Positions 1-33,974 of a stretch of DNA of 64,000 bases are shown here, in pieces (position 1 is the first letter of the stretch; each line of letters starts with the position of its first letter). The notes under the pieces are model-generated. The model was given only the letters and a program-made list of their open reading frames with translations, was not told where the DNA came from and ran no database searches. The stretch lies in NCBI GenBank assembly GCA_964388905.1, contig CAYMDG010000001.1, forward strand, positions 7,686 to 71,685, in the 5' to 3' direction. This DNA is from an uncultured Bacteriovoracaceae bacterium. GTDB lineage: Bacteria; Desulfobacterota; Desulfomonilia; UBA1062. The translations under genes were made by a program, and so were the position numbers.

Positions 1-684
1 ACCATCGATGTCGGGTATGATCCGAGTTATGTCACCTATAACGGCGCCACCTTTGTGCGGATCGGGCTCGGATCTCTCCAGGTCAGCCTGGACGCGCTGA
101 GCTTGAGGGTAGGCCTCGGCCCCGACACATCCCTTGCACAAGAGGTCGGAACGCTGAACCTCGGTCCCATGGCAGCGTACTTCAACCCTGCGAGCTATAT
201 TGATCTTTACAACCCGAGGATCGGGGTTACGAGCGCCGTGTATGTGACCATGAATGTCATTGTGGACCAGTTCGATCTGAGCTACCTGTCCTGGGGCGAC
301 AGCGACGGCCTGCCCGGCGGAAATACCGGGACCGGGGGCGTGGTGTGGATGGCCCCTGGCACCCTTTCGACAGCAGGCTACCTGGGTCTCCAGAACCTCA
401 CAATCGGCGGGCCCGTAACATTGACCGGGACCGTGAGCTTCGATGTCACCACAAGCAGAGGAGGCGTCTATGCCTCTGCAGGCGGAGGCCAGGTTACCGT
501 GTTCCACATTATTTTCCAGCGGCTGACCACCCTGAACTTCCATGGGCCCATCACGGCAAATGTACGGCTTGACAGCGTTGCGGCACTGAACAGCGCCAAC
601 GCCGGCACATTGGGGAATATCTACCTCTCGGGTGTCAACCTGGATGTGCGTGCCGGGAGCTGGATAGATATCTGGGCACATTAA
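1..684 (+). CDS. Secreted beta-rich repeat protein, 5'-truncated by the window edge. It is a paralog of 29414..30418.
   Basis: The reading frame is open from base 1 (TIDVGYDPSYVTYNGATFVRIGLG aligns to ITIDVGSSNAAGRTFVRFGLG of the 29414 gene). It shares WGD.DGLPGGNTGTGGVVWMA and the terminal GSWIDIWAH-stop with that paralog. The sequence is rich in G/T/N/S. Confidence 0.6.
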   Translation, partial: TIDVGYDPSYVTYNGATFVRIGLGSLQVSLDALSLRVGLGPDTSLAQEVGTLNLGPMAAYFNPASYIDLYNPRIGVTSAVYVTMNVIVDQFDLSYLSWGDSDGLPGGNTGTGGVVWMAPGTLSTAGYLGLQNLTIGGPVTLTGTVSFDVTTSRGGVYASAGGGQVTVFHIIFQRLTTLNFHGPITANVRLDSVAALNSANAGTLGNIYLSGVNLDVRAGSWIDIWAH

Positions 685-789: not shown

Positions 790-1677
790 ATGAAGAGATT
801 AGAGCAGATTCCTTTCATCGCGATAATCATATTGGCCGTCACAACACTTTCGCCCGGCATCCTTGCAGCCCAGATGAGCGTTGTCAGCGATGATGAGCTG
901 TCCTCTGTCTGCGCCCAGGCGGGCATCAATGCCAATTATGGTGATTTCGGGGTAAATATCACCACCGATTCCATTCGATTTTCCGACACCGACAACGGCA
1001 ACTGGATTGAAATGAATAACTTCTCCATCTCCGGCCCGGGGGGATATTTCAAGCTGGACTGCCCGGAAGATTCCCCCATGAGCATCGATGTGGGGACAAA
1101 GACCACCACCGACAACCTGACGAGGACCTTTATCGGTTACCAGCTGTCGGACCATATAAACACGCGAACCTGGTCAATCGGCAACTTTGTTTTCGCCAAC
1201 CAGGATCTTGGGAGTATCGTGTTTGATACCTCAACGGTGATCCCTGCCCATTTCGGCGTGTCAGCCCCCTTGGGGGCCGGTACCAGCGGAATAGAATTCG
1301 AATATCTCACCAGCTGGCTTACCCAGGATTTTACCTATGCCTACAACACAGCAGGAGGCGCCTTGAATTTACAGGGTATTCACCTTGCCCAGAGCGCTGC
1401 CGGTGCGCCTGAAAGCGACCCGTCCACGTGGGTGTTCAGCGGCCAGTTCCGGGTCGGCGATATACTCGGCGGGAATATCCATGCTGAACCGAGCCCTGCT
1501 ACCATGGATGTTGCCACAGAAATTTCAACTTCAACAACATCGTTATATGTCAACCTGCCCATGAAGGGCACGCTCAGGGTAGTGGATGTAGTACTCGGGG
1601 GAAATGATTTCGGCCCTGTTGCCATTGACGGCATCACGGTTCACCATCTCGGTTTGAGATTTAACCCGGGAAACTGA
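790..1677 (+). CDS. Secreted beta-rich protein, a distant member of the same family (signal peptide, then N-terminal D.ELS.V motif).
   Basis: ATG start with upstream AAGG. N-terminal hydrophobic signal (IPFIAIIILAVTTLSPGILAA). The mature N-terminus SVVSDDELSSVCAQAG resembles MTPVTDSDLSNVTGQSG of the paralogs. G/T/N-rich. It lies immediately upstream of the C39 peptidase gene. Confidence 0.5.
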   Translation: MKRLEQIPFIAIIILAVTTLSPGILAAQMSVVSDDELSSVCAQAGINANYGDFGVNITTDSIRFSDTDNGNWIEMNNFSISGPGGYFKLDCPEDSPMSIDVGTKTTTDNLTRTFIGYQLSDHINTRTWSIGNFVFANQDLGSIVFDTSTVIPAHFGVSAPLGAGTSGIEFEYLTSWLTQDFTYAYNTAGGALNLQGIHLAQSAAGAPESDPSTWVFSGQFRVGDILGGNIHAEPSPATMDVATEISTSTTSLYVNLPMKGTLRVVDVVLGGNDFGPVAIDGITVHHLGLRFNPGN

Positions 1678-1697
1678 GCCACTTCACTAATAACCCT

Positions 1698-2456
1698 ATG
1701 CCGATCATTGTCAGTTTCTTCATTCTCATGACATACATGGGGATCATGCACCCTCAGAGAGACATACCCAAGGGCGAGCTGAGAACAACACCTGGCATGG
1801 CAGGCATGCAGAATCTGACGCTCAGGAATAATGTCAAGCCGCTCAATGAAGGATTCACCTACAAGAATGTCGTAAAGCAGGAATTTGACTATAGTTGCGG
1901 ATCAGCGGCCCTGGCCACCCTCTTGAACTTTTACCTCGGTGAGAAATTAACCGAACAGCAGGTGATCCAGGGGCTCATGCAATACGGCGATGCGGACAAG
2001 ATACAGGAACGCAGGGCATTCTCCCTCCTGGACATGAAGCGTTTCGTTGAGGTGCTGGGGTATACGGGTGTCGGGTATAAGGCCGAACTTGATGACATCA
2101 GGTCTCTGAAAAAACCCGGGATTATCCCCATAGAATTGGCCGGTTACAAGCATTTTGTGGTATTCCGCGGAATTTACGGCAACCACATCTTTTTCGCAGA
2201 CCCGTTCAGGGGCAATACGAGCTTTACCCTTGAAACCTTCCGCGAAATCTGGAGCCAGAACATCGTATTCGTCATCTCAACGGAAAATGTTCACTTAAAG
2301 GCGCTCGCCTTGAAAGATGAAGACCTGCGCATCATTGACTTTGACATGACGCGGCATGCAATGACACAGACCCTCCCGCCCCAAATAGTGACGGATCAGC
2401 GTCAACTAACGGAATCCATAGGTGGAACGTATTATAAGACTGTAAATATAAAGTGA
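1698..2456 (+). CDS. Standalone papain-like C39-family cysteine peptidase (FapD-like architecture), probably periplasmic or membrane-anchored.
   Basis: Q-x5-C motif (VKQEFDYSCGSAALATLLNF) and a downstream catalytic His context (AGYKHFVVFRG). There is an N-terminal hydrophobic segment, and the size (~250 aa) is typical of Peptidase_C39-like domain proteins. Confidence 0.75.
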   Translation: MPIIVSFFILMTYMGIMHPQRDIPKGELRTTPGMAGMQNLTLRNNVKPLNEGFTYKNVVKQEFDYSCGSAALATLLNFYLGEKLTEQQVIQGLMQYGDADKIQERRAFSLLDMKRFVEVLGYTGVGYKAELDDIRSLKKPGIIPIELAGYKHFVVFRGIYGNHIFFADPFRGNTSFTLETFREIWSQNIVFVISTENVHLKALALKDEDLRIIDFDMTRHAMTQTLPPQIVTDQRQLTESIGGTYYKTVNIK

Positions 2457-2533
2457 CAATTGCACATGTTTTCATGTAAGGTTACATATATTGGCACTTA
2501 TTAACAATAGAGTATGCCGGGGGTAATTAAGCT

Positions 2534-3622
2534 GTGAAATTTTTTTGTATGGTTGGAATGGTTTTGTTGTTCTTGACCCTGTCGATCAGCACGCTGAATG
2601 CACAGGAGCAGGGAAATAAGGACAGTCAGGAATTGCTTGACAGGATAGAGACCCTGGAAAAGCAGCTGAAAAAACTTGAAGATGAAGGCAAGGCAAGGAA
2701 AAGCCTGGAGATAACGGAAGAAGAGAAAACTGACTCAGAGAAAGAAGTGCTCGAGGCCGTGGGCAGGGAATATTCCCTTTCACCGAAAGGCACTTTTTCC
2801 CTTGATTACAACCTGAGCTACGCCTATTCACCGGCCGAGACGTTCATCTCTCAATCACAAGCATCGCAATCGGCAACAACCCTGGAATTTCAGCGCCAGG
2901 CGGATCATACCATTACGCATTCCATATATACTTCGTACAGTATACTTGACAATCTCACCACAAGTGTGAACCTCCCCATCGTCTATCGGTACACAAAACA
3001 GGGCACCGACGATAGCCTTGACCAGTCGGATATCGGTGATATTTCCATAGGGCTTGCCGTGCAACCCCCGTCAGCCTGGTCCTGGCTTAAGCTTCCTCTC
3101 GGCATAAACGGCACGTACACTTTTGGTGGGGTGCTGCCAACGGGGCGCAGTCCGTTCAAGATCAACACCAAGACGGAGCTCTCCACAGGCAGCGGGTTAT
3201 ATCAGCTCTCGGCGGGTGGGAGTTTCAGCAAACAGATTGATCCGCTGGTATTCTTCTGGAGCCTTGGTTATTCCTATCCCTTCGACAAGAAAAATCTCAA
3301 CTACCGTGTACAGGATCAGATAACCCTGGATGAGGTGAAAACGGGTAGTTCGATTAACTTCGGTATGGGAATGGGGTATGCCATGTCCTATGCGAACTCC
3401 ATCAACATGTCTTTCAACTATTCATATCAGAAATCATCCAGCTACAAATATAATGAAGTAAAAAGCGTCCAGAAGAGTGGGGACCGCGTTTCAGCAACAT
3501 ATGGAATAGGCATGGGATTAATGGTGACACCGAAGACTGTTATCTCGGTATCGCTCGGATACAATCTCATAAGCGCCGGGTTCTCGCTGTCTGCACGGGT
3601 GCCATTTGATTTTGTTATGTGA
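2534..3622 (+). CDS. Outer-membrane beta-barrel protein with an N-terminal coiled coil (FapF-like organisation).
   Basis: Signal peptide (LFLTLSISTLNAQE), then a heptad-like charged segment (ELLDRIETLEKQLKKLEDEGKARKSLEITEEEK), then ~250 aa of alternating-hydrophobic beta strands rich in Y/S/G/N, and an aromatic C-terminus (VPFDFVM). Confidence 0.6.
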   Translation: MKFFCMVGMVLLFLTLSISTLNAQEQGNKDSQELLDRIETLEKQLKKLEDEGKARKSLEITEEEKTDSEKEVLEAVGREYSLSPKGTFSLDYNLSYAYSPAETFISQSQASQSATTLEFQRQADHTITHSIYTSYSILDNLTTSVNLPIVYRYTKQGTDDSLDQSDIGDISIGLAVQPPSAWSWLKLPLGINGTYTFGGVLPTGRSPFKINTKTELSTGSGLYQLSAGGSFSKQIDPLVFFWSLGYSYPFDKKNLNYRVQDQITLDEVKTGSSINFGMGMGYAMSYANSINMSFNYSYQKSSSYKYNEVKSVQKSGDRVSATYGIGMGLMVTPKTVISVSLGYNLISAGFSLSARVPFDFVM

Positions 3623-3634
3623 GGAGCTTATCGG

Positions 3635-5314
3635 ATGAAGAGGTTCAGTGTTATCTTCTTAATCTTAACGGTAGCGATTCCGGGGATCCCATCACTGCTA
3701 TCTGCTGCCCTGTATGAACAGCTTGTCACAAGCCCCCTTGCATCCTCCATGGGAAGTGCTGTTACGGCCTATCCGCCGGGGGCCATGGCCATACATTATA
3801 ACCCGGCAGGCCTTGCGACCATCCCTGGCACCCGTTTTGATAATGGCATCGGTTATGTTAACACCTTCAGGGAAGTTTCCTATCACCAGGCCATTGACCC
3901 AACAACGGGTAAACCCTGGGCACCCTTCGGCGGGTGGTTCAACCACGGGATAGACCCGCTTGACGGAATGAAAGGCAGGCAGTCGAGCGGGTTTACAATC
4001 ATCCCCTATATCGATTTAGAAATACCTTACCTCATTACCCCGGGAATGGGGATTTCATACAAACCACCCGACCCGAAATACTCCCGGTGGACCTTCGGTT
4101 TTGGTCAGTTCGCAACCTTTGGTGCGGGTCTGAAAAACTCAAAGGGCAATCCGATCAGTTATCTGGGTCAGAAGGCCTTTTTCATAAGGATGAGCTTTAT
4201 CACCCCTGCTATTGCCTATCAGCTCACCGACACCGTATCCATCGGGGCGGCAGTGGGGCTGGGGCCATCGGTATTCATGCTCGAGACGAACATGAGGACG
4301 CCCAATGATATGGGTGCGCTGACCGGGGCGCTCGGAGAGTCAACAAGGGGCCTCGAAATTCCTGTAGTCTCTGAGCTCACGTTACCCCCACCCTGGTTCA
4401 ATGGCGGGATGACAGCGTATGCAACCCATGGCCATGTCAAGATGATGATGGAAGACTACCTCACCACGTCCTATAACCTGGGCATGCTCTGGCAACCCTA
4501 TGACTGGTTTGCCTTCGGCGCCTGTTATCAGAGTGAGTCCGAGGCAAACATGGAAGGCAACTTCAAATTCACCTACGGATCTGAATTCCGCAGAACAGTT
4601 GACTGGTTCGGCAGATCACCCATGACCATTATTACCTCAGCGATCTTTGACCTGCCCAACAAATCAGTGCCTTTCCAGAAAGGGACAGCCACCATGGACT
4701 TGACATGGCCGGCCCGTGTCCAGCTTGGCGTCAAGCTGCGCCCTGTCAAGCAGCTGACAATGACCTGTGATGCGAACTGGACGGATTGGGCTGTGCAGAA
4801 GGCGTGGGTGTTTCAGTTCGACCAGAAGATCCAGCTCTTACGGTTTGCCCGTATGCTCGGATATAGGTATTCCCCTGATACGCAGGTTATTGTGCACAAT
4901 TTCAAGAACACCTGGCATATGACCTATGGGTTGGAGATCAGACCTGTTAACAAGTTTTATCTGCGCTTGGGGTATGATGCAAGGCCTACTTCTGTTCATA
5001 ACAATCTCTTCGGGCCGTTGCCTTTCCCGGACCTCAAGATTTACTCGGCTGGCATAGGGCTTGTGGTGGATGACAAGCCCAAGCCTTCACCAAAAAATTT
5101 CAAAGAGCTGCAAACGCAGATAGAGCACCCGAATGAAGTGAATATCGTTGTGTCCTATATAAAACTAAACGACAAGACAGTGAAGAGCAATTCAAGCGTA
5201 AACTACAATTCCACGGTATTCACCAATATCGTTTATAACCCTTACGCAGGGCTTGACGTGCACCAGGAGATGCACTTGTGGTGGTTTGCCATCAACCAGA
5301 TATTTAAATGGTAG
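3635..5314 (+). CDS. FadL/TodX-family outer-membrane channel (hydrophobic-compound transporter family).
   Basis: Signal peptide, and an N-terminal hatch-like motif with NPAGLA (GSAVTAYPPGAMAIHYNPAGLATIPG) characteristic of the FadL/Toluene_X family. Long beta-rich body ending in an aromatic residue (..IFKW). Confidence 0.7.
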   Translation: MKRFSVIFLILTVAIPGIPSLLSAALYEQLVTSPLASSMGSAVTAYPPGAMAIHYNPAGLATIPGTRFDNGIGYVNTFREVSYHQAIDPTTGKPWAPFGGWFNHGIDPLDGMKGRQSSGFTIIPYIDLEIPYLITPGMGISYKPPDPKYSRWTFGFGQFATFGAGLKNSKGNPISYLGQKAFFIRMSFITPAIAYQLTDTVSIGAAVGLGPSVFMLETNMRTPNDMGALTGALGESTRGLEIPVVSELTLPPPWFNGGMTAYATHGHVKMMMEDYLTTSYNLGMLWQPYDWFAFGACYQSESEANMEGNFKFTYGSEFRRTVDWFGRSPMTIITSAIFDLPNKSVPFQKGTATMDLTWPARVQLGVKLRPVKQLTMTCDANWTDWAVQKAWVFQFDQKIQLLRFARMLGYRYSPDTQVIVHNFKNTWHMTYGLEIRPVNKFYLRLGYDARPTSVHNNLFGPLPFPDLKIYSAGIGLVVDDKPKPSPKNFKELQTQIEHPNEVNIVVSYIKLNDKTVKSNSSVNYNSTVFTNIVYNPYAGLDVHQEMHLWWFAINQIFKW

Positions 5315-5510
5315 ATTCTTTCGATAGAACGAGGGTATGACAGGTCTTGTGGTATGATAAGAAGTGATTCATAAGCATATCCGTGCCGATATCAAAAGTG
5401 CAAAAGACATCAGTAAGCCGGGTTGTTGCATTCCTCAGTAAAAGTTTGTATATCTCACATCGGTTTCAATGAAGATCATTATAGAATCAATAAAAAGGAG
5501 AGAATCAGGA

Positions 5511-7019
5511 ATGAAAAGACATGTGTGTTATCTGACGTTGGTTCTCGTTGTTTGCACCCTTATGTCAAGCTCGGTTGTATGTGCAGAGAACAAGACACTC
5601 AAAGAAAAGATAGACATCATAGCCGAACCATCAAAGGACTGGGATATATACCTGGAGTCTGCCACACCAAGCCCTGACTCCAATCATGTGACTACCGTTG
5701 CGCGCAACAAGGCCGGTAAGTTTTGCGTTGTGTACGATGGAAAACCCCTTAAGGAATACAGTTCAATCGGCAAGGGCACCCCGGTCTTCAGCCCTGATTC
5801 GAAGCATTTTGTCTATAAGGCAAAAAAGGGCAATAAATGGCTGATGGTCTTGGACTCCAATGAGCAGAAGGCTTACGACAATGTGGGCAACCCGGTTTTC
5901 AGCCCTGACTCGAAAAGACTTGCCTATATAGCTGAAAAAGGCGGGAAATATACGGTTGTCCTGGACGGGAAAGAGATCGGTGAATATGATCTTGTCCCTT
6001 CGAAATACAACCTGATCTTCAGCGGCGACTCAAAACGCTTTGTTTTTCTCGCGCTGAAAGGCAAGAAAGGACTCATGGTTGTCGACGGTGTGGACGGGAA
6101 GATCTATGACCAGGTATCATATGCCGTCTTCAGCCCGGACTCGAAACACCTCATTTATCCGGCAACGAATAATAAGAAAATGTTTGTAGTATACGATGGA
6201 AAGGAATTGACTGCTTATGAAAAGGTCGGGGCATTTGCCTTCAGCCCCGACTCATCGCGGTTCGCCTATACCGCCAAACTCAACGACAAGGCGTTACTGG
6301 TCTCGGACGGGAAGGAAAGCCCGCGATACTCCGATATCGCCATGCCCATGTACAGCCCTGATTCAAAGACCATAGGCTATTTCGCCATAGATGGTAAGAA
6401 GACCTATATGGTCATGAACGGCAACAAGGGGAATTCCTATGACGAGGTCAGGGAGTTGCTTTTCAGCCCTGACTCTTCACGCTATACCATATCCTATCGT
6501 GATGGCAGCGACTGGTTCGCCCTCGATGAAAAGGGGAAGATAAGCGCCAAATATGACAATGTCTTCATGCCGGTCTACAGTCCGGACTCGAAGCATGTGG
6601 CCTACATGGCGCAGAAAGGGAAAAACTGGTTTATAGTACGTGATGGAAAAGAAGGTCCAAAATATGATTTTATCACCCTAGCCCAGTTCAGCAAGGACTC
6701 GAGCCGCATGGTCTATATGGCGAAGAAAGGGGAAAAGTGGCTGGTGGTCATGGATGGTAATGAATCGAAAATCTATGATGGCGTTGCCCTTCCCAAGTTC
6801 AGTGATGATTCGCGTCACTATTCATACATTGCATTAAAAGACAGTTTATGGTTCGCTGTGGTCGATGAGATTGAAAGCAAAAATAAGTTTCTCGGTTTTC
6901 TCAAGGGATCGGATGTATCATTTGATACAAATACCAGCACGCATGTCCTTGGGCTTCACGTGCCCACGGGATCAACATTACCAAACATCGTAAAATTGAA
7001 GATCGATATTGCAAACTGA
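5511..7019 (+). CDS. Secreted protein built from ~11 tandem ~40-aa WG/PD40-like beta-propeller-type repeats.
   Basis: AAGGAG RBS at 5495..5500, ATG at 5511. Signal peptide (LVLVVCTLMSSSVVCA). Recurring unit G.KW.VV.DGKE...YD.V....FSPDSK.LAY.A.K. The upstream in-frame extension in the ORF track lacks an RBS. Confidence 0.65.
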   Translation: MKRHVCYLTLVLVVCTLMSSSVVCAENKTLKEKIDIIAEPSKDWDIYLESATPSPDSNHVTTVARNKAGKFCVVYDGKPLKEYSSIGKGTPVFSPDSKHFVYKAKKGNKWLMVLDSNEQKAYDNVGNPVFSPDSKRLAYIAEKGGKYTVVLDGKEIGEYDLVPSKYNLIFSGDSKRFVFLALKGKKGLMVVDGVDGKIYDQVSYAVFSPDSKHLIYPATNNKKMFVVYDGKELTAYEKVGAFAFSPDSSRFAYTAKLNDKALLVSDGKESPRYSDIAMPMYSPDSKTIGYFAIDGKKTYMVMNGNKGNSYDEVRELLFSPDSSRYTISYRDGSDWFALDEKGKISAKYDNVFMPVYSPDSKHVAYMAQKGKNWFIVRDGKEGPKYDFITLAQFSKDSSRMVYMAKKGEKWLVVMDGNESKIYDGVALPKFSDDSRHYSYIALKDSLWFAVVDEIESKNKFLGFLKGSDVSFDTNTSTHVLGLHVPTGSTLPNIVKLKIDIAN

Positions 7020-7073
7020 ATACTTTACCCTATGAAAAAAGGCTGAGGGTGAGAAATGCCTTTGGCCATAAGC

Positions 7074-7117
7074 AAAAGGGGAAGCCCGCCGGCACGCCGG
7101 CGGGCTTCCCCTTTTCC
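7074..7117. terminator. Bidirectional rho-independent terminator between convergent genes.
   Basis: AAAA-GGGGAAGCCCGCCGGC-acg-CCGGCGGGCTTCCCC-TTTTCC. A perfect 15-16 bp GC-rich stem flanked by an A-tract and a T-tract. It lies between the stop of 5511..7019 (+) and the stop of 7125..9374 (-). Confidence 0.75.
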
Positions 7118-7124
7118 GTCTATC

Positions 7125-9374
7125 TTACGGGTGGTCCTGCATAAGCTTCTTGTAAAAGTCGGTCCCCCGTATGTTTTCAAGGTCCGGATCGTTTCTGAGC
7201 ACGGACCACTTGCTGAAACCCTTTCCGATAGCAGCCTGAAGGCTGCCCACCGCTTCATCCACCTTGTTCTGCCTGGCCTTTATGCAGGCTATGTTGTAAT
7301 ACGCATCAGGGTCATCAGGGTGTGCGGATGTCATCCTGTCGAGGTAGACCAGGGCCTTTTCATAGTCTCCTTTGCTCGAATTGAGGACTGCAAGGGCGTA
7401 CACGGCCTGCAGATCTTCCGGGTTTTTCCCCAGTGCAGCCTCTGCTGAGCGTATCTTTTTCTCGATGAGGTCCTTCTTTTGGGTTACAGCAATGAGGCCG
7501 GCAAGGGCTTCTCGAAAATCAGGCTGTACCTTGAGAATCTCGGAATATTCCCTGGCGGCAGCATCAAGCCTGTTGGACGCCGCATATGCGAATGCAAGCT
7601 TGTTCCTGACCTGAAAATTGCCGGGAATCAGAGCCAGGACATTGCGGTAATACCGGGCGGCCTGGTCGGCATCACCCATACTCATCAGGAGGTTCGCCAG
7701 GCTGTAATGGTAATCTGCCGAGCCGGGATTCAGGGCAAGGGCCGCCTTGTATTCATGCATCGAGTCTTTGAATTTCATCTGTGCCGCGAGGACAGAGGCA
7801 AGTCTTTCGTGGATCATGGGATCTTGTGGACTCAACTTCAGGGCTTCCCGGTAAAACGTTTCCGCTTCCTGGTTTCTGCCGAGCTTGTTGAGGGTATTGC
7901 CCATGCCGGTCTGTGAGGACACGTACTGCGGTCTAACCTGTATTGCCTTGGAGAAATACGACAGGGCCTTGTCATAATCGCCATTATAAAAGTAGGCGTT
8001 GCCCAGGGTGTCGTAAGAGATGAAGTTGGCCGGGTCAACATCGATCCCGTGCTCGAAGAAGGTGTAGTCATTCTTCCAGTAAGGCAGCTGAAGCGATATT
8101 TTCACCAGAAAGCCGCTGAGCACAATTGCGGTTGCGACAAGCACGCCAATCTTCAGAGCGGACCGGTTCGATACAAGATCGGCAAGGGACCAGGTGATGG
8201 CGATGAAGAGCCCGATATAGGGCACATAGGCCCAACGCTCGGCTATTGCCGGCCAGAGACCGCCTTGCATGAGTCCTGAAACAGGGACAAGGGTGCCCAG
8301 GAACCAGATCCAGCCCATGATGAGGTAAGGAGCTCTTGTCAGGAAGGCAAGGCAGACAATGGTGATGAGAAAGATGAGCAGCAGAGACCCGGTCACCTGC
8401 CATGCAGGCACAAAAACGGGGTAGGGGTAGAAAAAAGTTAAGTTTACGGGCCAGATCATTTTCCCGAGGTAGAGCGCATAGGAGACAATGGCCTGGGAAA
8501 TTCGCAGGCCCATGGGGACCTCGCCCGTAGAAATGACGAGCCCCACCGACTTGATGGATAATGACGAGAAATAGATGGCAGCAAGAGCGCCGGCGAGCAG
8601 GGGCAGCTTTTCAAGGATGACCATTGCATATGCGGATATGCCCGTTGCTCCCGGGAAATTTTTTTTATATTTCTCCGCCTGGTTCTCGCTCATGGGGAAT
8701 CCGATGCGTTTCAAAGGCCAGAAGTCCATGAGCAGGAGAACAAAGGGCAGGGTTACCAGCATGGGCTTTGCAAGGAGCCCGAGAACAAAGGTTGCTGCAA
8801 CCAGGATATATCTGCCGATGGTACTGCGTTCGGTGTAAAGGATATAGGTGTACATGGTCAGCATCCAGAAGGTGGTGCTGAGGATATTCTTTCTTTCTGC
8901 AACCCAGGCAACCGTATCTACATTTACCGGGTGGAATGCGAACAGTGCCGCAACGATGGCGCTTTTCCACACTGCGCCGGTTGCCTTTCTCAGGACAAGG
9001 AAGATCAGGAGGGCATTTATTGCATGGAAAAAGACGTTCATCAGGTGGTGCAGCCCTGCGTTCATATCGAAGAGCTGAGAGTCTATCATATGCGATATCA
9101 ATGACAGGGGGTGCCAGTAGATCTTTTCAACAGGCTTCGAGATCTGGAATGCCCAGGCGACGTTTTCAGCATTCAAACCGCTCTTCACGTGGGGATTGCC
9201 AAAGACATAGTGGTCATCGTCGAAGTGGAGAAACTCATGCCCGCCCACCGGCCAATAGACCGCAAAGGTGGTTATGAACAGGAAGAGGCATATAAGGAAG
9301 GCCTTATTTCCATCGATCATCTGTTTGAGTCCGTTCATATCAGTCATTTTTTTCATGATAACCCTATATATCAC
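7125..9374 (-). CDS. TMTC/PMT-like GT-C membrane glycosyltransferase with a C-terminal TPR array and the conserved terminal cap.
   Basis: Multi-TM N-terminal half with a first-loop acidic motif (LHFDDDHY) and the hallmark ALFAFHPVNVDTVAWVAERKN motif. C-terminal TPR repeats end in YYNIACIKARQ..EAV.SL..AIGKGF..W.VLRNDPDLENIR. Confidence 0.8.
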   Translation of the reverse strand: MIYRVIMKKMTDMNGLKQMIDGNKAFLICLFLFITTFAVYWPVGGHEFLHFDDDHYVFGNPHVKSGLNAENVAWAFQISKPVEKIYWHPLSLISHMIDSQLFDMNAGLHHLMNVFFHAINALLIFLVLRKATGAVWKSAIVAALFAFHPVNVDTVAWVAERKNILSTTFWMLTMYTYILYTERSTIGRYILVAATFVLGLLAKPMLVTLPFVLLLMDFWPLKRIGFPMSENQAEKYKKNFPGATGISAYAMVILEKLPLLAGALAAIYFSSLSIKSVGLVISTGEVPMGLRISQAIVSYALYLGKMIWPVNLTFFYPYPVFVPAWQVTGSLLLIFLITIVCLAFLTRAPYLIMGWIWFLGTLVPVSGLMQGGLWPAIAERWAYVPYIGLFIAITWSLADLVSNRSALKIGVLVATAIVLSGFLVKISLQLPYWKNDYTFFEHGIDVDPANFISYDTLGNAYFYNGDYDKALSYFSKAIQVRPQYVSSQTGMGNTLNKLGRNQEAETFYREALKLSPQDPMIHERLASVLAAQMKFKDSMHEYKAALALNPGSADYHYSLANLLMSMGDADQAARYYRNVLALIPGNFQVRNKLAFAYAASNRLDAAAREYSEILKVQPDFREALAGLIAVTQKKDLIEKKIRSAEAALGKNPEDLQAVYALAVLNSSKGDYEKALVYLDRMTSAHPDDPDAYYNIACIKARQNKVDEAVGSLQAAIGKGFSKWSVLRNDPDLENIRGTDFYKKLMQDHP

Positions 9375-9473
9375 ACTCCTGCCGGATTTGAAAAAGACTT
9401 GCCAAGGTTGTGCTTATGTATATATGCCAGAGACAGACTTACAAGACATCTCAAGAAAAACAGGAGCGGATGA

Positions 9474-10811
9474 ATGGGTAAAAAATGCCTGATTATCTCA
9501 GTAACAGCCTTTCTCTTATTTTATGCCGTGACAGTCCGGGCTCAGGACAGCCTCGCACAAAGAATAAGTACTGAAAAACCCCTCGCAGGCGTGGATACAA
9601 CCTTTTGGATTGAATCATCTTTTCAGGTGAGCCCTGATGTAAGACATACGGCATATATCGCAAAGGCAGGGGATATGCGTTACATGGTCGTGGACGGAGT
9701 AAAGGGGAAGCAGTACGATGGCGTCGCAACAGGCCGGCATGTGTTCAGCCCTGACAGCAAGCGGGTGGCATATATGGCAGTTACCGGTGAAAAGCAATGT
9801 GTAGTTGTAGATGGAAAAGAGGAGAAGCGCTACGATGGCATCTCTGTAACAGGCCCGGTATTCAGCCCTGACAATAAGCACGTGGCATACACTGCCCGGA
9901 CGGGCACAAACTGGTTTGTGGTTCACGACGGCAAGGAGGGCAAACCCTATAACGGCATCATGGATGGAACCCCCGTGTTCAGCCAGGACAGCTTGCATGT
10001 GGCATATGCAGCTGAAGTGGACTCTTTGTTTGGAGGAAAGAAATGGCTGGTGGTTGTGGATGGGAAAGAGGGAAAGCCCTACAAGGGCATTGCTGCAAGC
10101 GGCCCGGTCTTCAGCCCTGACAGCGGGAAAGTTGCATATGCAGCTCTTGCAGGGAAGAAATGGCTGATGGTGGAAGATGGTGTTGAAGGAAAGCTCTACG
10201 ATGACATCAAGGCCGGATCATACGTTTTCAGCGCAGACAGCCGGCACCTGGCATATGTGGTAAAGGTGAACGAAAGATATTCGGATAAATACCGGGTTGT
10301 GCTGGATGGGAAAGAACTGAAACTCTATGACAGCATCGGTAAGGGCACCCTGGTTTTCAGCCCTGACAGCGCTCGGTTGGCCTATGTTGCGAGCACGGGA
10401 GACAAATATTTTGTCGTTGCGGATGGGACAGAGGATGAGAAGAAGTTCCAGATCATCGGCGCTGGCAGCCTGACGATAAGTGATGACGGCAGGCACATGG
10501 CGTATGAAGTGCGGGTAGACAAAAAGTTCTCCGTAGTGCTCGATGGCAAAATGGGGAAGCTGTACGACGGTATCACCCTGAATTCACTGGTATTCAGTCC
10601 TGGCAGCGCACACCTGGCGTATGTAGCTCAAACAGAAAACAAAGAGGTTGTGGTGGTCGATGGGGTAGAGGGCAAGTCCTATGACGCGCTTGTCACTACG
10701 GGAGGGGGAAGGATTGTGTTTGATGGCCCGCATGCCTTTCATTACATTGTACGGAAAAATAAAACCCAGTTCTCTCTCATTGAAGAGAGTATCCAGGGCG
10801 GAAAGGATTAG
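9474..10811 (+). CDS. Secreted WG/PD40-like repeat protein, a paralog of 5511..7019.
   Basis: Signal peptide (LIISVTAFLLFYAVTVRAQD). ~10 tandem repeats of VFSPDSK.VAY.A..G.K...VVDGKEGK.YDGI. Confidence 0.65.
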   Translation: MGKKCLIISVTAFLLFYAVTVRAQDSLAQRISTEKPLAGVDTTFWIESSFQVSPDVRHTAYIAKAGDMRYMVVDGVKGKQYDGVATGRHVFSPDSKRVAYMAVTGEKQCVVVDGKEEKRYDGISVTGPVFSPDNKHVAYTARTGTNWFVVHDGKEGKPYNGIMDGTPVFSQDSLHVAYAAEVDSLFGGKKWLVVVDGKEGKPYKGIAASGPVFSPDSGKVAYAALAGKKWLMVEDGVEGKLYDDIKAGSYVFSADSRHLAYVVKVNERYSDKYRVVLDGKELKLYDSIGKGTLVFSPDSARLAYVASTGDKYFVVADGTEDEKKFQIIGAGSLTISDDGRHMAYEVRVDKKFSVVLDGKMGKLYDGITLNSLVFSPGSAHLAYVAQTENKEVVVVDGVEGKSYDALVTTGGGRIVFDGPHAFHYIVRKNKTQFSLIEESIQGGKD

Positions 10812-10942: not shown

Positions 10943-11608
10943 TTATTCGCTTCTCATTCTGCTTCTGAATCCTAGAAGTCCTAATATTCCTGATCCCAGC
11001 ATAATGATTGCTGGTGGGATGGGCACAGCAGGAGAGTTCGGTAGTGTGTTGGGAGGGACATATCCCAGGGTAAGCCTGAGCCGCTCAGACTGCCCGTATG
11101 TGTTCCCCAGTGTTGTCCATGTATGTAGATCTCCATCAATGGCATTTGCCACTGTGTTGGGGATTGCATTGTCGCCCAGGGCTGCAAAGCTCGCAACATA
11201 ATGGGAATAATCCTTAAGGCCGCCCAGGAAGTTCAGTTGCATTTCACAAATGTTCATTCCACCGCCATATGGGGCCTGCCCCAGGAACTGTGCCTCAATT
11301 GTAACATATTCGCCGGCCGGATTGAATGTTCCGTCTCCGTTCGAGTAGAAGACATCGTACAATTCAGAGCCGGGAACCCCCCAGAAGTCGAAGTAGCTGC
11401 TTGTAAGGGTGCCGTTCAATCTGGTCAGGAGTTGTTCACTCTGTATGTCGAAGGTATACGCCTTGGGGCCGCTTAGTAAGTTTGTGCTCTCCCAGAAGGT
11501 TATCGAGTATAAAGACGGCTTTTCATAGAACGGGGCCGCAAAAGAGATGCTTGAGACGAATATGCCTGCGAGGATTATGGTGATGACAGATAGTTTGTAC
11601 AGCCTCAT
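10943..11608 (-). CDS. Secreted protein with a PEP-CTERM-like C-terminal sorting signal (variant PIPP motif).
   Basis: N-terminal signal peptide (LSVITIILAGIFVSSISFAA). The C-terminus VPIPPAIIMLGSGILGLLGFRSRMRSE has Pro motif, hydrophobic helix and Arg-rich tail. Strong RBS (CCAAGGAGGG) upstream. Confidence 0.55.
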   Translation of the reverse strand: MRLYKLSVITIILAGIFVSSISFAAPFYEKPSLYSITFWESTNLLSGPKAYTFDIQSEQLLTRLNGTLTSSYFDFWGVPGSELYDVFYSNGDGTFNPAGEYVTIEAQFLGQAPYGGGMNICEMQLNFLGGLKDYSHYVASFAALGDNAIPNTVANAIDGDLHTWTTLGNTYGQSERLRLTLGYVPPNTLPNSPAVPIPPAIIMLGSGILGLLGFRSRMRSE

Positions 11609-11894: not shown

Positions 11895-12659
11895 TCAAGG
11901 ATTAAAGGCCATCTTGAGCTCCTCGCTGTCCGGGTAGCTGATCAGAACGGCTCGGTGAGGGCCATGAAAAACGAACATGCTGCCGGCCCCGGCTGCGGAT
12001 GCACCGCCTTCCTTTACCGATGCTTCCAAATCTTTTACACTTCCAGCCCCCCCGGAAGCTATAACGGGAATATTTACGATGCTCGTAATGCGTCTGATGA
12101 GATCGATGTCATAGCCTTTCATGGTTCCGTCGCGGTCGATTGAGTTGATGACCAGCTCACCTGCACCCATCTTTTCCATGTTTCTTGCAAAGACCGCGGG
12201 ATCGAATCCGGTTGATTTTCTGCCGCTGTGGGTGAACACCTCATACTTACCCCACAGATTTTTCTTCACATCTATTGAGACGACCACACTCTGGGAACCC
12301 ACAAGCTGTGATACCTCGGCGACGAAGGCGGGGTTCTCCACCGCAAGTGTGTTGATCACGACCTTTTCCACGCCAAGACCAAGGATAATCCTGACCTGGT
12401 CAAGATTCCTGATCCCACCGCCGTAGCCGAAGGGCATGAAGGCTTCGGTAGCAATCTTTTCGAGCAATATATATGGCGGCTCTTTGCCATCTATGGTTGC
12501 AGTAATGTCGAGGAAGACAATCTCGTCCACTTCCTTTTCATTGAAGATCTTGACAATATTGATAGGATCGCCGAGGTATTTCGGGTCTTTGAACTTAACG
12601 GTCTTGACAAGGCCCTGGTTTTTCAGAAGCAGGAAGGGTATGGCCCGGGGCATGAACAT
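11895..12659 (-). CDS. hisF: Imidazole glycerol phosphate synthase cyclase-subunit paralog (HisF/WbuZ-like) of glycan clusters.
   Basis: Clear HisF-family similarity (GGGIRNLDQVRIILGLGVEKVVINTLAVENPAFV...IPVIASGGAGS). It is paired with a HisH-like gene and lies near a WbuX-like amidotransferase. Confidence 0.85.
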   Translation of the reverse strand: MFMPRAIPFLLLKNQGLVKTVKFKDPKYLGDPINIVKIFNEKEVDEIVFLDITATIDGKEPPYILLEKIATEAFMPFGYGGGIRNLDQVRIILGLGVEKVVINTLAVENPAFVAEVSQLVGSQSVVVSIDVKKNLWGKYEVFTHSGRKSTGFDPAVFARNMEKMGAGELVINSIDRDGTMKGYDIDLIRRITSIVNIPVIASGGAGSVKDLEASVKEGGASAAGAGSMFVFHGPHRAVLISYPDSEELKMAFNP

Positions 12660-13283
12660 CTATGAGTTTTCCCATTGAGCAAAGTTATTAAGAAGAAGCA
12701 TCCCGAACTTGTGGCTCTTCTCAGGATGGAACTGAACGCCCAGAATATTCTGTTTCATGATCGCAGAAGAAAAAGAAAAGCCGTACTCTGTCCGGGCCAG
12801 TACATTCTGTTCGTGTACGCATTCCACATAGTATGAGTGGACGAAATAGAATCGGTTCTCCTTCTCAAGGCCGGCAAATACAGGATGCACTTGAGATACC
12901 TTAAGGGTGTTCCAACCCATATGGGGTATCTTGAGATTCGCGGAATCGCCTTCGAACTTGAAACGGATGCTCTCTGCATCCACCCAGCCAAGGCCGGGCA
13001 ACCCGCCTTCGGCGCTGCGGTTACCCATGAGCTGCATGCCCAAGCACACACCCAAGATGGGTGTTTTGTTTTCGAGTACCTTCTCGTTCAATACCGGGAT
13101 CAATCCCCTATCACGGATGTTTTTCATCCCGGTGTCAAAAGCGCCCACACCTGGCAGTATAAGTTTATCGGCTTTTTTAATCTCAGATACCTCTGATGTC
13201 ACCTTGGTTTTCACGCCTGCCTTCTTGAGCATGTTGGCCATGGAGCCGAGGTTGCCGAGACCGTAATCAATGATGGTAATCAT
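12660..13283 (-). CDS. hisH: Glutamine amidotransferase HisH/WbuY-like subunit.
   Basis: MITIIDYGLGNLGS...ILPGVGAF, class-I GATase motifs with a catalytic Cys context (GVCLGMQLM). Immediately adjacent to the HisF-like gene. Confidence 0.85.
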   Translation of the reverse strand: MITIIDYGLGNLGSMANMLKKAGVKTKVTSEVSEIKKADKLILPGVGAFDTGMKNIRDRGLIPVLNEKVLENKTPILGVCLGMQLMGNRSAEGGLPGLGWVDAESIRFKFEGDSANLKIPHMGWNTLKVSQVHPVFAGLEKENRFYFVHSYYVECVHEQNVLARTEYGFSFSSAIMKQNILGVQFHPEKSHKFGMLLLNNFAQWENS

Positions 13284-16077: not shown

Positions 16078-17283
16078 TCATATCTTTTTCCGGACATCCA
16101 TTTCATGGAGCATCGGAGGAGTCCATGGCAGAGCGAGTTTCAAAACAAGACGGACCAGGGGGAGCAGTTTCTGGAAAATGGGGTAATAAGAGGGGTAATC
16201 GTGAAATGTCTTGGGAGGAAGAGCCATTATATGTAAGAATTCTTCATGGGTCAGATTGAGTTTCTTGGTAACATATTCAAGGTCTTCATCAAGTTTATCT
16301 TTGGTATAGGGTTCTTCTTGAAGCTTTTTCAGTCCTTCTTCACGAGAGATTTCCCCGGAACGAACCAGGGCTGAGTGGGTTATGATCCTTTTATCGATGC
16401 CGAATTTCTTGGGCAGGATGTAGGAATAAGCAAACCTGGTATATATAGACTCATAATGGTGCCCCCCGTAGTATTGCCATTCGAGCTCCCTTTCCAGCAG
16501 TTCTCTTGCCCGGTCCTTATGATAATCGATGTAATTCAGTATCCTGAGCAGTTTGATGCCTCGTATGACGCTATAATATGCGAAGAGCGGCAGCGTGAGA
16601 TTGGGAAAAGTCTTTATGGGTTTTGTCCCGTACTTTTTCTGCACATGTTTGATGGTCCTCCCATCACTGTACGTCCACTCCGTGGGCATCTTGCCCTCTG
16701 TCCTGAAGTTGTTCCCGACGATTACAGACTTAATCCCGTGTTCCGCGGCAGTCCGGTAAAGTATGGAGGTGATAGCGATATCAGTGGGGGCATCAGGCCA
16801 GGGAAGGGATGCATAGAGAAAGGAGCGGAGGATATCACTGAACTCCTCCCAATCGACGATGTAAGTTATCAGATCAACATCAAGCTTTGACACAACCTTC
16901 TTGATGTTGTCATTTGCTATCAGAGAGGTCCATCCATTGTCGAAATTCACAGCAAGGGGCCTGAGACCCAGCTTCTTCACAAGATAGAGAAGGTAAGTGC
17001 TGTCGGTGCCTCCGCTTACCCCTACTACACAATCATATTGCTTGCCTTTCCCGGTTTTCTTTATCTGACCGACCAGTGCGTTCAGTGTCTTTTCCCCTTC
17101 TTTACCTATCTGCCAGGTGCCTTCGAGGATTTTATGGAGCTTGCAATAATTGCAGACCCCCTCCTCATCAAACAAAACTCCGGGGACAGTTGAATCTATG
17201 AGGCATTTCGTACATACTCTATGTTCAGTCAACTTGCTGCTCCTTGTACTCATAAATGATGATGGATGAAATCGATCATCCAT
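16078..17283 (-). CDS. N-acetyl sugar amidotransferase (WbuX/WbpG family), PP-loop ATPase.
   Basis: N-terminal Cys-rich region (CTKCLIDSTVPGV..CNYCK) and a PP-loop SGGTDS motif (VVGVSGGTDSTYLLYL). Family members act with HisH/HisF paralogs to form acetamidino sugars. Confidence 0.75.
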   Translation of the reverse strand: MDDRFHPSSFMSTRSSKLTEHRVCTKCLIDSTVPGVLFDEEGVCNYCKLHKILEGTWQIGKEGEKTLNALVGQIKKTGKGKQYDCVVGVSGGTDSTYLLYLVKKLGLRPLAVNFDNGWTSLIANDNIKKVVSKLDVDLITYIVDWEEFSDILRSFLYASLPWPDAPTDIAITSILYRTAAEHGIKSVIVGNNFRTEGKMPTEWTYSDGRTIKHVQKKYGTKPIKTFPNLTLPLFAYYSVIRGIKLLRILNYIDYHKDRARELLERELEWQYYGGHHYESIYTRFAYSYILPKKFGIDKRIITHSALVRSGEISREEGLKKLQEEPYTKDKLDEDLEYVTKKLNLTHEEFLHIMALPPKTFHDYPSYYPIFQKLLPLVRLVLKLALPWTPPMLHEMDVRKKI

Positions 17284-18452: not shown

Positions 18453-20822
18453 TCAGGTCCAGTCTCTTCTTGATGATCTTAATAAAGGTTCCCGCTTCAA
18501 ACAGGTATTCATGACAATGTCCATACCCCTTAATGAGGTTAAAACAGGTTTCTCCTTGCCCTTAAAGTGGTCATGTTCAAGGGGCAAGGTATATTCGCCA
18601 CCATCTTGTGCAACTTTACCCTCATGGCTCCTCAACAGCTCGACTACATAGGCTGTGCTCCTGACATTCGCAAGATCAGGATCTTTTCTGATGAGGTCCC
18701 ACCGGTTGAAGCCTTTCTCGATTGCCTGTTTGAGCCAGGCCACGGATTCGTCCGCCCTGTTCTGTATTGCAGACAGGCATGCGAGGTTGTAGTAAATCTC
18801 TGGGTTGGCGGGCTGAAGCTGCTTCATCCTGATCAAGGTATCTGCTGCCCGGGAATATTCCTTCATATCAGAGTAAACGAGCACGAGTCCGTAAAAAGCT
18901 TTGATGGAGTCTTTCTGGAAAGAAATGGCCTTGTTGTACTGCGATATGGCATTCTCATAGTCTCCCTGCTCCCGGTAGATATCGCCCAGTCTCGTAAGCA
19001 TGATCGGGTTTCCGGGTTCTTTCTGGAGTGCGCTCTGAAGAGCGAGAATAAGTTGATCGAATTTCTGTTTTGTGATTTGAGCTTTTTCAAGGGCGCTTCT
19101 TGCTTCGCGAGAATCAGGCCTTTCATTTAAGGCCTGCCTGTAGGATTCAACTGCCCTGGCGACATTGCCTTTCTGGAGATATGCGTTACCGAGGTTGAAG
19201 TACATATTAGCCTGATGAGGATCAATCTGTAATCCTTCCAGGTAGGTTTTGATGGCTTCATTATAATATCCCATTTCCGCCATGATCATCCCAAGCCTGT
19301 TGTGGACGTTCTCTTTCCGGGGATTGACCTTTATACATTCACGATACTTCTCAGCCGCTTCGACTAGGTTGCCCTGTTCTGCCAGGACCCTGCCGAGACA
19401 GTAATAAGAGTTGTCGTAATAGGGGTTGATTCGGATCGCCTTGTGGTATTCTCTGATGGCCCCCTGGGTATCTCCATTGTAATAGAATGAATTTCCGAGA
19501 TTGCTGTGAGCAATTGCGAGCCCGATGTTGTTGAACGCCCCGTTCTTTCCGTCTATCACGGAAACGACGTGCGTAAAGAGGGTTGTACTGTCCTTCCAGT
19601 AACCGACCTGTGTCCACGCGAGGGCAGCAAAAAAAATCGTCACTCCCGTGCCAGCTATGGCAAGTGCCGGGGTTGAATGCCTCCATCGTCTCAAGATGTC
19701 AGGAATACCCCAGGCAAGGGCGATGAATATGCCAATAAAGGTGAGATAACCATACCGATCGGCCATCTCGGGCCATACACCTGACATGAAAATGCCTAGG
19801 AAAGGTGCGAGTCCGCTCAGGAACCACAGCCAGCCAACGATAAAATACGGATAACGGGCAGCAAGCCTCAGGGCAAGTACTGTAAGCACTGTCAATACCA
19901 GCAGCGCGCCTGATGTCTCCCACAAGGGGATCATTGCGGGGTATGGATAGAGTATAGACAGGTTATGAGGCCAGAACAGCATACCCAGGTATTTCACGCT
20001 TGAGACGATGGCGTTGGATATGCGCAGGCCCAGGGATATTGTCTCTGCGCCATAGAGACCCATGCGGCTTTGTGCCCCTACCATGTTGCTCAGAAAGGAC
20101 AGGAAAGCAAGGATCAGAAAGGGGGCCTTCTCAAGCATGACCCGGGAGAGTTGGGCGGTACCGGACGACTTAAGCATCTGCACGTAGCTTCCCTGCGTAT
20201 CCAAATGCATCCTTTTAAGCGGCCAGAGGTCGATGAGCAGCAGTAAGAAAGGCAGCGTCATGAGCGATGGCTTTGCGAGCAGGCCAAGCCAGAACAGAAG
20301 CAGCGCTGTCATGTACCTTTTCCATGTGGGCTGTTCTGTATAGAAGGTGTAAGCCAGAAGGGTGAGCATGAAGAAGAGGCCGCTCAGGACATTATTCAGC
20401 TCTGCAATCCAGGCGACCGACTCTACGTTGGCCGGGTGAAGGGCGAACAGGGCACTCACGAAGGCGCTCTTCCAGAATCCGCCTGTAATCCTGAAGAGCA
20501 GAATAAAGAGCAGAATGCTGTTTAATGCATGGAGTATGAGGTTCAGGACATGGAATGCACCAGGATTCAGCCCGAACAGGGCATGGCAGGCCGTATAACC
20601 GAACCAGGTGAGGGGGGAGCACCAGGACGCCGGACTGAAGGACCATATGAAGTTGCTCCAGGTGAGGCCTGTCAGGACATGTGTCTGCTCGGTCAGCTGC
20701 AGCGGGTCATCAATGTTGACAAAGTCGAAGCCTGCCGCACGGTAGTAGACGAGGATAATAAAGATGACGAGGGAAAGACAGAAAATACTATTTTTGTATT
20801 TCAATAAATGTTTGTTTAACAT
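18453..20822 (-). CDS. TMTC/PMT-like GT-C membrane glycosyltransferase with C-terminal TPR. It carries an unusual ~55-aa extension after the cap.
   Basis: FVNIDDPLQLTEQTHV loop motif, ALFALHPANVESVAWIAELNN, a TPR array, and the cap YYNLACLSAIQNRADESVAWLKQAIEKGF..W.LIRKDPDLANVR. ~70% identical to the 59200..61410 paralog in the N-terminal region. Confidence 0.8.
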   Translation of the reverse strand: MLNKHLLKYKNSIFCLSLVIFIILVYYRAAGFDFVNIDDPLQLTEQTHVLTGLTWSNFIWSFSPASWCSPLTWFGYTACHALFGLNPGAFHVLNLILHALNSILLFILLFRITGGFWKSAFVSALFALHPANVESVAWIAELNNVLSGLFFMLTLLAYTFYTEQPTWKRYMTALLLFWLGLLAKPSLMTLPFLLLLIDLWPLKRMHLDTQGSYVQMLKSSGTAQLSRVMLEKAPFLILAFLSFLSNMVGAQSRMGLYGAETISLGLRISNAIVSSVKYLGMLFWPHNLSILYPYPAMIPLWETSGALLVLTVLTVLALRLAARYPYFIVGWLWFLSGLAPFLGIFMSGVWPEMADRYGYLTFIGIFIALAWGIPDILRRWRHSTPALAIAGTGVTIFFAALAWTQVGYWKDSTTLFTHVVSVIDGKNGAFNNIGLAIAHSNLGNSFYYNGDTQGAIREYHKAIRINPYYDNSYYCLGRVLAEQGNLVEAAEKYRECIKVNPRKENVHNRLGMIMAEMGYYNEAIKTYLEGLQIDPHQANMYFNLGNAYLQKGNVARAVESYRQALNERPDSREARSALEKAQITKQKFDQLILALQSALQKEPGNPIMLTRLGDIYREQGDYENAISQYNKAISFQKDSIKAFYGLVLVYSDMKEYSRAADTLIRMKQLQPANPEIYYNLACLSAIQNRADESVAWLKQAIEKGFNRWDLIRKDPDLANVRSTAYVVELLRSHEGKVAQDGGEYTLPLEHDHFKGKEKPVLTSLRGMDIVMNTCLKREPLLRSSRRDWT

Positions 20823-32301: not shown

Positions 32302-32314
32302 TACGGGCAAACAC

Positions 32315-33970: not shown

Positions 33971-33974
33971 CGCC

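Follow-up and report, generated by a model that had tools for sequence, protein, structure and literature searches.

A PD40 propeller gene ends a Fil/Fap-related operon at a conserved junction with a putative periplasmic glycosylation island in uncultured deltaproteobacterial-type bacteria

A 64,000-nucleotide stretch of DNA from an uncultured Bacteriovoracaceae bacterium (GTDB lineage Bacteria; Desulfobacterota; Desulfomonilia; UBA1062), here called the window (GenBank assembly GCA_964388905.1, contig CAYMDG010000001.1, positions 7,686 to 71,685 of the forward strand), encodes a putative membrane glycosyltransferase between two secreted repeat proteins and raises the question of what this enzyme modifies. 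The repeat protein genes, A (5511..7019, + strand) and B (9474..10811, + strand), flank the enzyme gene (7125..9356, − strand), whose product joins a GT-C-like membrane domain to TPR and TPR_END modules in an architecture like that of eukaryotic TMTC proteins and bacterial TfpW. An earlier note on this DNA had proposed an enzyme/substrate pair, in which regularly spaced serines of the repeats would be glycosylated, and this proposal was partly supported. A is a PD40 propeller and the last gene of an operon related to the Fil and Fap fibre systems, this operon meets a glycosylation island at a conserved junction, and a functional link between operon and island is likely, whereas the specific pairing of one enzyme with its flanking proteins was not supported.

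Both flanking open reading frames (ORFs) were repeat proteins as proposed, with a Sec-type signal peptide and tandem repeats over nearly their whole length. ORF A spans 5469..7019 and probably starts at the methionine at 5511, giving a protein of 502 aa with 11 copies of the motif [FYP]S(P/x)DS[KSN][RHT] at a spacing of 37–40 aa (residues 53, 93, 130, 170, 207, 244, 281, 318, 356, 393 and 430). B has 445 aa and nine repeats with motif copies spaced 39–44 aa. Runs of SPD[SGN] were confined to ORFs A and B in a six-frame scan of the 64 kb window. Both proteins matched Pfam PD40 (PF07676; cutoff 20.9 bits), A with 51.1 bits (E 1e-13) and B with 38.4 bits (E 1e-9), scores that chance would not give; the WG repeat that had been named as an alternative was not recovered, as WG_beta_rep had no match in A or B and the Pfam matches at E<=0.01 consisted of PD40 and a sub-threshold Peptidase_S9_N. 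The label 'Ser-rich' was too strong: serine makes up 10% of A and 7.4% of B, and the two motif serines account for nearly all of it. The AlphaFold model of A (pLDDT 93.7, pTM 0.84) was all-beta with three to four strands per repeat, and Foldseek searches with it returned propellers only, yet with low global TM-scores (0.2–0.37). The best NCBIfam match of both proteins was TmcD (NF045725; A 139.6 and B 132.1 bits, cutoff 440), and TolB (TIGR02800) matched with 33.9 and 32.9 bits (cutoff 343). The PD40 blade with an SPD(G/S) turn is common to A, B, TolB, S9-peptidase propellers and Desulfovibrio TmcD, but A differs from TolB and TmcD in its 11 short blades of 37 aa, and the window offers no Tol-Pal or Tmc (tmcABC) context. 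By sequence, A and B are ordinary PD40 proteins of the beta-propeller type.

A comes fifth or sixth in an operon whose genes all lie on one strand, in the order FilA-like DUF6160 protein, C39 peptidase, FilC/FapF-like barrel, FilD/FadL-like barrel and PD40 protein. The window edge truncates a FilA-like (DUF6160-type) gene to its 3' part (1..684, + strand), and the C-terminus encoded there (...SGSWIDIWAH) matches that of ORF 29414..30616, a paralogous DUF6160 protein with matches to DUF6160 and FilA. The FilA-like secreted protein that follows (790..1677, + strand; Pfam DUF6160 39.1 bits, cutoff 27) has a signal peptide and an S+T content of 18% and is a candidate fibre subunit. Next come a FilB/FapD-like C39 cysteine peptidase (1698..2456, + strand; Pfam Peptidase_C39, E 1e-15; NCBIfam pilus_FilB 213.7 bits, cutoff 475; FapD 114 bits, cutoff 330), a FilC/FapF-like outer-membrane barrel with an N-terminal coiled coil (2534..3622, + strand; Pfam OMP_b-brl 26.4 bits, under the 28.7 cutoff; pilus_FilC 166.6 bits, cutoff 630; FapF 59.1 bits, cutoff 700) and a FilD-like outer-membrane barrel of the FadL/TodX family (3635..5314, + strand; Pfam Toluene_X, E 4e-34; pilus_FilD 258.6 bits, cutoff 970). 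This FilA-B-C-D-like order (790..5314, plus strand) recurred in more than 30 loci, and the orthologous operons opened with one to four tandem DUF6160 genes. Acinetobacter filABCDEF and Pseudomonas Fap share the succession of FilA-like protein, C39 peptidase, coiled-coil barrel and FadL/FilD-like barrel; unlike them, the operon of the window has no FilE, FilF, FapA, FapB or FapC (the operon proteins gave no NCBIfam Fap match beyond FapD and FapF), and in addition a PD40 propeller gene and a glycosylation island follow its barrel genes. Because the Fil and Fap scores all fall under the curated cutoffs, the operon is a distant relative of the two fibre systems and not a member of either. The Fil system is itself barely characterised.

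Conservation of this arrangement was followed in loci from three sources: orthologues of the enzyme, genomes scanned for A (10 loci from a four-sequence PD40 alignment) and metagenomes scanned for the FadL-like protein (70 loci). Lineages were defined by PD40 proteins less than 90% identical to each other, giving 18 lineages with 40–73% identity to A. The order DUF6160(x1–4)-C39-OMP (outer-membrane protein)-FadL-PD40 was intact across the 18 lineages wherever the contig allowed, and in nearly every locus with downstream DNA and a FadL-like protein at least 58% identical the A orthologue came directly next. All 13 lineages whose contigs reached far enough had a membrane+TPR enzyme gene within 2 kb on the downstream side of PD40, convergent with it in six and co-directional in seven. 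A fourteenth lineage (P0010; L088) carried a same-strand cassette of GT2, epimerase, flippase-like and GT-C-TPR genes between FadL and PD40. Proximity of PD40 and enzyme genes (<2 kb in at least one sampled contig) was found in 14 of 14 assessable lineages at 37–73% identity to A, which answers in the positive the check on conserved adjacency that the earlier note had asked for. Strains varied within one lineage, with the enzyme at 1.4 kb in L035, at 6.5 kb in L030 and none within 4–5.6 kb in L033 and L034. Genes between PD40 and enzyme, where there were any, coded for GT2, NTP-transferase, flippase-like or other GT-C proteins. Upstream of the operon, where eight lineages offered over 2.7 kb of sequence, no membrane+TPR enzyme was found.

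The adjacent enzyme belonged to at least five paralogue types. The 7125-type was limited to the window and the three loci most closely related to it, and elsewhere the enzyme was of the 18453/59200-, 24924-, 41681/44000- or 22250-type, which rules out a fixed one-to-one pair of PD40 and GT-C orthologues. One candidate for a distant orthologue of 7125..9356, P0128, was shown by synteny to be an orthologue of the window paralogue 41681..43897. Distant PD40 homologues (Planctomycetota, Parcubacteria and others) had no consistent GT-C neighbour, and a general habit of PD40 genes to travel with GT-C genes was rejected: the neighbour in L009 is a kinase-TPR gene, the PMT_2 gene in L010 stands behind unrelated genes, and L008, L011, L013 and L090 have no GT-C neighbour. 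Since the adjacent paralogue varies, the window holds 11 TPR enzymes, B is unconserved, a terminator separates A from the convergent enzyme gene and distant homologues lack a consistent GT-C neighbour, the conserved tie is that of a Fil-like/PD40 operon with a glycosylation island, and not that of one enzyme with one flanking protein. All but the last of these points undercut the specific enzyme/substrate pair, as do the family-wide occurrence of FSPDS(K/R) and the place of A in a five-gene operon. The literature searched held no description of such a conserved junction, in which a Fap/Fil-like operon and a PD40 propeller meet a TPR-tagged glycosylation island with many paralogues; the separate parts are of known kinds.

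A junction of this sort might reflect shared ancestry, with the operon edging a large envelope-polysaccharide island (of O-antigen, exopolysaccharide or PEP-CTERM type) whose TPR enzymes would have polysaccharide, lipid or other proteins as their targets. The positive lineages are without exception contigs of uncultured bacteria, of deltaproteobacterial type and apparently related, just one of the 11 TPR enzymes in the window adjoins a PD40 gene, and the adjacent paralogue varies; the convergent orientation of A and enzyme with a terminator between them is also as expected without a functional link, and the window holds genes for a Wzx flippase, a WecF-like GT56, WbuX/Y/Z-like amidotransferases, DegT aminotransferases, a GDP-mannose dehydratase and a PEP-CTERM-like protein. 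However, the junction has outlasted rearrangements (six convergent and eight co-directional lineages with L088 counted, and differing insertions), was kept while PD40 identity dropped to 37–40%, and always has the enzyme on the PD40 side, never upstream of the operon. We regard adjacency by ancestry alone as distinctly improbable. The operon contigs of L006 and L007 were binned as 'Methanobacteriota archaeon' and 'Methanomicrobiales archaeon' metagenome-assembled genomes (MAGs); this is probably mis-binning, because the L006 contig matches one from a Deltaproteobacteria MAG (L005) almost exactly.

The enzyme gene starts at 9356 and not, as first given, at 9374, judging by an identical database protein (P0121, 743 aa). 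The protein has a helical membrane region to about residue 432, followed by about nine TPR hairpins and TPR_END (TPR_END_plus 75.9 bits; AlphaFold pLDDT 90.3), and a homologue search returned 7948 of 8000 scored candidates at E<=1e-10. Its N-domain matched PMT_2 just under the cutoff (25.3 bits, cutoff 26.1; Pfam, E<=1), and the paralogue 41681..43897 passed it (34.2 bits). The pair D51-D52 (HFDDDHY, first loop) was invariant in 43 homologues and paralogues, including four from the window, and corresponds to the conserved DD in the first extracytoplasmic loop of TMTC (motif definition from PMC7801869), while YWHPLS and AKPMLVT resemble TMTC motifs M2 and M4 (SHKSYRP, KExxT). Eukaryotic TMTC1-4, which are O-mannosyltransferases, share with the enzyme an N-terminal multi-span membrane domain (GT-C in TMTC), a C-terminal lumenal or periplasmic TPR and the DD. 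Of the 'TMTC-like' description, the membrane+TPR layout and the DD thus stand, but the TMTC-defining DUF1736 loop, located in TMTC between TM7 and TM8, was not detected in the N-domain (Pfam, E<=1). The enzyme is TMTC/TfpW-like in architecture; family membership is unproven. Between the convergent A and enzyme genes lies a strong bidirectional intrinsic terminator (7074..7115), a perfect GC-rich hairpin with A4/T4 flanks and a stem of 19 bp counting the flanking A/T runs (dG −39.9 kcal/mol). It was found by eye and folded, a consensus terminator scan having missed the hairpin (short loop), and Rfam gave nothing in the window.

The window encodes 11 enzymes with a C-terminal TPR + TPR_END module, at 7125..9356, 18453..20822, 22250..24823, 24924..27104, 32195..33814, 33897..35384, 41681..43897, 44000..46228, 50111..52387, 56322..58568 and 59200..61410. 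Six are DD-type GT-C-TPR proteins, three are other membrane+TPR proteins and two are TPR_END proteins beside a DltB-like MBOAT. The DD-type paralogues (18453..20822, − strand; 22250..24823, 41681..43897 and 44000..46228, + strand; 59200..61410, − strand) are 23–43% identical over their full length to 7125..9374 and each have [FI]DD in the first loop. The N-terminal catalytic or membrane domains of the 11 are of at least four kinds, and their last ~110 aa have 26–44% pairwise identity to 7125..9374. This common tail on different N-domains suggests one shared targeting domain for a suite of envelope-modifying enzymes. PD40 propellers, TolB among them, serve as platforms for binding other proteins. 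If A served in this way as a docking hub, the shared tails would bind it and the enzymes would be held at the Fil-like channel to modify passing subunits, a picture that suits one C-terminal module on 11 enzymes with different catalytic domains and the PD40-C39 fusion P0003 (see below). It is, however, purely inferential, and the 120 best homologues of each of the two families included no PD40-TPR or PD40-GT-C fusion; we hold it to be very improbable.

The remaining island genes would supply the sugar. Four ArnC/PgfS-like GT2 proteins (46328..47275, + strand; 53148..54131, − strand; 20904..21857, − strand; 39451..41061, + strand) are candidate polyprenyl-phosphate-sugar synthases; the best NCBIfam match was ArnC for 46328..47275 (190.8 bits) and PgfS for 53148..54131 (192.5 bits), AglJ and dolichyl-P-hexose transferases were further best matches of island GT2s, and every GT2 score was under the equivalog cutoff. 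A flippase-like membrane protein (36217..37314, − strand) matched LPG_synthase_TM (TIGR00374 89.7 bits, cutoff 43.2; Pfam E 3e-45), and a gene of this kind recurs beside the PD40 gene in L030–L035 and L088. The island further encodes many sugar-nucleotide enzymes. This gene set reads as a parts list for three-component periplasmic glycosylation from lipid-linked monosaccharides. The Pgf system of Streptococcus mutans and the Gtr and Arn systems likewise cluster a GT2 polyprenyl-phosphate-sugar synthase, a flippase-like protein, an epimerase and a GT-C, and the L088 cassette has exactly this make-up. Pgf acts on Gram-positive adhesins and Arn and Gtr on lipid A and O-antigen, none of them has a TPR tail, and the matches of window proteins to Pgf and Arn models were all sub-cutoff.

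As to what the island would act on, the closest guide is TfpW, a GT-C that glycosylates a pilin whose gene lies next to its own (bioRxiv 10.1101/2020.04.19.049825). The TfpW of the TfpW-PilA system (Pseudomonas aeruginosa group IV) has a cytoplasmic N-terminus, about 11 transmembrane segments, a DDX motif in a periplasmic loop and a C-terminal periplasmic TPR, an architecture that 7125..9356 resembles. TfpW uses a lipid-linked sugar, and its gene adjoins that of its fibre subunit much as 7125..9356 neighbours FilA-like genes. The likeness lies in architecture and gene neighbourhood, and the two differ in that TfpW-PilA concerns a type IV pilus and D-arabinofuranose and has one enzyme in place of many paralogues and no PD40 gene. 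On this analogy, we favour the explanation that the island modifies the exported product of the Fil-like system, to which we give a probability of about 0.55. A is a soluble periplasmic PD40 propeller encoded by the last gene of a conserved Fil/Fap-related fibre secretion operon, whose PD40 side always abuts an island apparently made for periplasmic glycosylation from lipid-linked sugars. The GT2s, flippase-like proteins, sugar-nucleotide enzymes and TPR_END enzymes of the island would then modify what the system exports. The most likely acceptors would be the FilA-like subunits while crossing the periplasm, as a GT-C with TPR glycosylates the pilin encoded beside it in TfpW, and A would be a periplasmic accessory component in a binding or holding role.

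Several results weigh against this explanation. The FilB, FilC, FilD, FapD and FapF models were the best NCBIfam matches of the operon proteins, with every score sub-cutoff, and neither FilE nor FilF had an NCBIfam match among A, B and the neighbouring ORFs, the PD40 gene holding that place. For the enzyme, an N-domain profile search found no PDB sequence relative, and Foldseek matches were dominated by the TPR part, so that the GT-C fold is unconfirmed. Three observations also favour a direct tie of the enzyme to the PD40 protein over a tie to the FilA-like protein. Deeper Fil-like operons (FadL 30–42% identical) have neither an adjacent PD40 gene nor the enzyme, the PD40 gene of L088 stays beside the enzyme and is parted from FadL, and of the 150 repeats in A orthologues 140 keep the second motif serine (1 Gly). 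A bolder proposal, which we consider rather unlikely, would make the SPDS-type PD40 propeller the dedicated folded-domain acceptor or obligatory adaptor of Fap/Fil-tied TMTC/TfpW-like GT-C-TPR enzymes, with the one strictly kept serine per blade as the site. If true, it would be a bacterial counterpart of domain-specific O-glycosylation as in TMTC-cadherin and TMEM260-IPT.

The original proposal, that A (and B) are acceptors, here spelled out as a model in which the TPR would dock the folded propeller and the FSPDSK serine or serines would receive sugar from a polyprenyl-phosphate donor, shares these three observations. It also gains from the PD40–enzyme adjacency in 14 of 14 lineages and the presence of donor-synthesis genes, from the PMT_2 GT-C found 0.7–0.8 kb from the PD40-esterase relatives of B, and from a model in which the motif forms a surface loop repeated over the propeller. 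TMTC1-4 likewise act on a repeated folded beta domain (cadherin EC). The cadherin sites lie on beta-strands, whereas the SPDSK residues in the model of A form a six-residue loop between consecutive blades and no strand. The motif is also widespread. A search for PD40 homologues gave over 2,600 proteins (E<=1e-10), among which fusions to esterase/S9, C39 peptidase, sigma-70, FGE-sulfatase, HEAT, PDZ or TIR domains were frequent, and SPDS occurred 597 times against 215 for SPDG in the best 120 homologues. As SPDS is the commonest form across homologues with unrelated fusions, FSPDS(K/R) is the signature of a large PD40 subfamily irrespective of genomic context. In homologues without GT-C-TPR neighbours the second motif position was Ser in 38 and Gly in 30 of 75, a contrast with A orthologues that is confounded by phylogeny, and all-Ser homologues without a GT-C neighbour exist (L008, L090). 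The motif serine and aspartate are structural in PD40 and Asp-box turns. FSPDSK is modelled as a structural PD40 blade-junction loop, and its role as a glycosylation acceptor is only putative. With the adjacent enzyme being no fixed orthologue, B unconserved and nothing here marking A as an exported surface protein, we think it unlikely that A and B are the substrates.

The preferred explanation, modification of the Fil-like export product, singles out the DUF6160 proteins. Right after the signal peptide these carry an almost invariant segment, MTP(V/I)(T/S)DSDLSNVTGQ(A/S)GV, which occurs in 790..1677, 29414..30616, 35381..36049 and 1..684 and also in L003–L051, and its degenerate form M(T/S)x(V/I)(S/T)DxxLSxV(T/S)(G/A)Q(A/S)G(V/I) was found in 20 DUF6160 orthologues and paralogues. 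The segment resembles the double-glycine leaders cut by C39 peptidases, a likeness we infer from sequence, and the C39 gene comes directly after the FilA-like DUF6160 gene in the operon. P0003 (MBW2597007.1, Deltaproteobacteria MAG, 735 aa) combines an A-like PD40 part (47% identical), a transmembrane helix and a FilB-like C39 part (47% identical); if it is not a true fusion, it reflects a variant gene order with the PD40 and peptidase genes side by side. The literature held a single unrelated mention of DUF6160 and described Fil only as a 'putative pilus'.

Bacterial membrane+TPR GT-C-like proteins number thousands, and TfpW is the sole one with a known acceptor in the literature searched. 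Because gene order is conserved across at least 14 lineages, the module described here gives a short list of candidate acceptors, the FilA-like DUF6160 proteins and the PD40 propeller, and likely donor-synthesis genes stand alongside, which makes the acceptor question directly testable. The module links the barely studied Fil/Fap-like secretion to periplasmic glycosylation and, if the fibre is glycosylated, would bear on how the deltaproteobacteria of anaerobic digesters and sediments build their surfaces.

B is a recently acquired, lineage-specific paralogue. It has about 40% identity to A-type orthologues, and its nearest relatives are PD40-esterase fusions (P0001, 50% identical) with the S9 domain order. 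It was kept only in the closest relative, the 83%-identical locus; where B would stand, L003 has another TPR gene and L004 an esterase gene. The closest relatives of B include the PD40 + esterase/S9 fusion genes of L086 (8001..12954) and L087 (7001..11903), which share synteny: 0.7–0.8 kb past the fusion gene stand a TPR-less PMT_2 GT-C, a UbiA prenyltransferase and a radical-SAM gene. The gene next to B (10943..11608, − strand) codes for a secreted protein with a signal peptide and a PEP-CTERM-like tail (C-terminus VPIPPAIIMLGSGILGLLGFRSRMRSE, from the translation) consisting of VPIPP, a transmembrane helix and RSRMR. This protein had no family match in Pfam or NCBIfam, and its gene stays beside B in the 83% locus.

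Three further features of the window were observed. The gene for a polytopic membrane protein of 683 aa (27124..29175, + strand) has a membrane+TPR enzyme gene on one side and a FilA-like gene on the other; the protein had no Pfam or NCBIfam match and may represent a further glycosyltransferase or polymerase that has escaped recognition. A HisF/HisH-like pair and a WbuX-type N-acetyl-sugar amidotransferase (273.8 bits, cutoff 203) are encoded at 11895..13283 and 16078..17283 (both − strand), and this WbuXYZ-type set (acetamidino sugars) adjoins the Wzx flippase and the WecF-like GT56. Finally, the DltB-like MBOAT (30880..32301) scored 192 bits to the DltB model (cutoff 375) and is followed by 32195..33814 and 33897..35384, which are paralogous (47% identical) and both end in TPR_END. 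Together, the MBOAT and the two TPR_END proteins possibly form a periplasmic acylation arm of the island.

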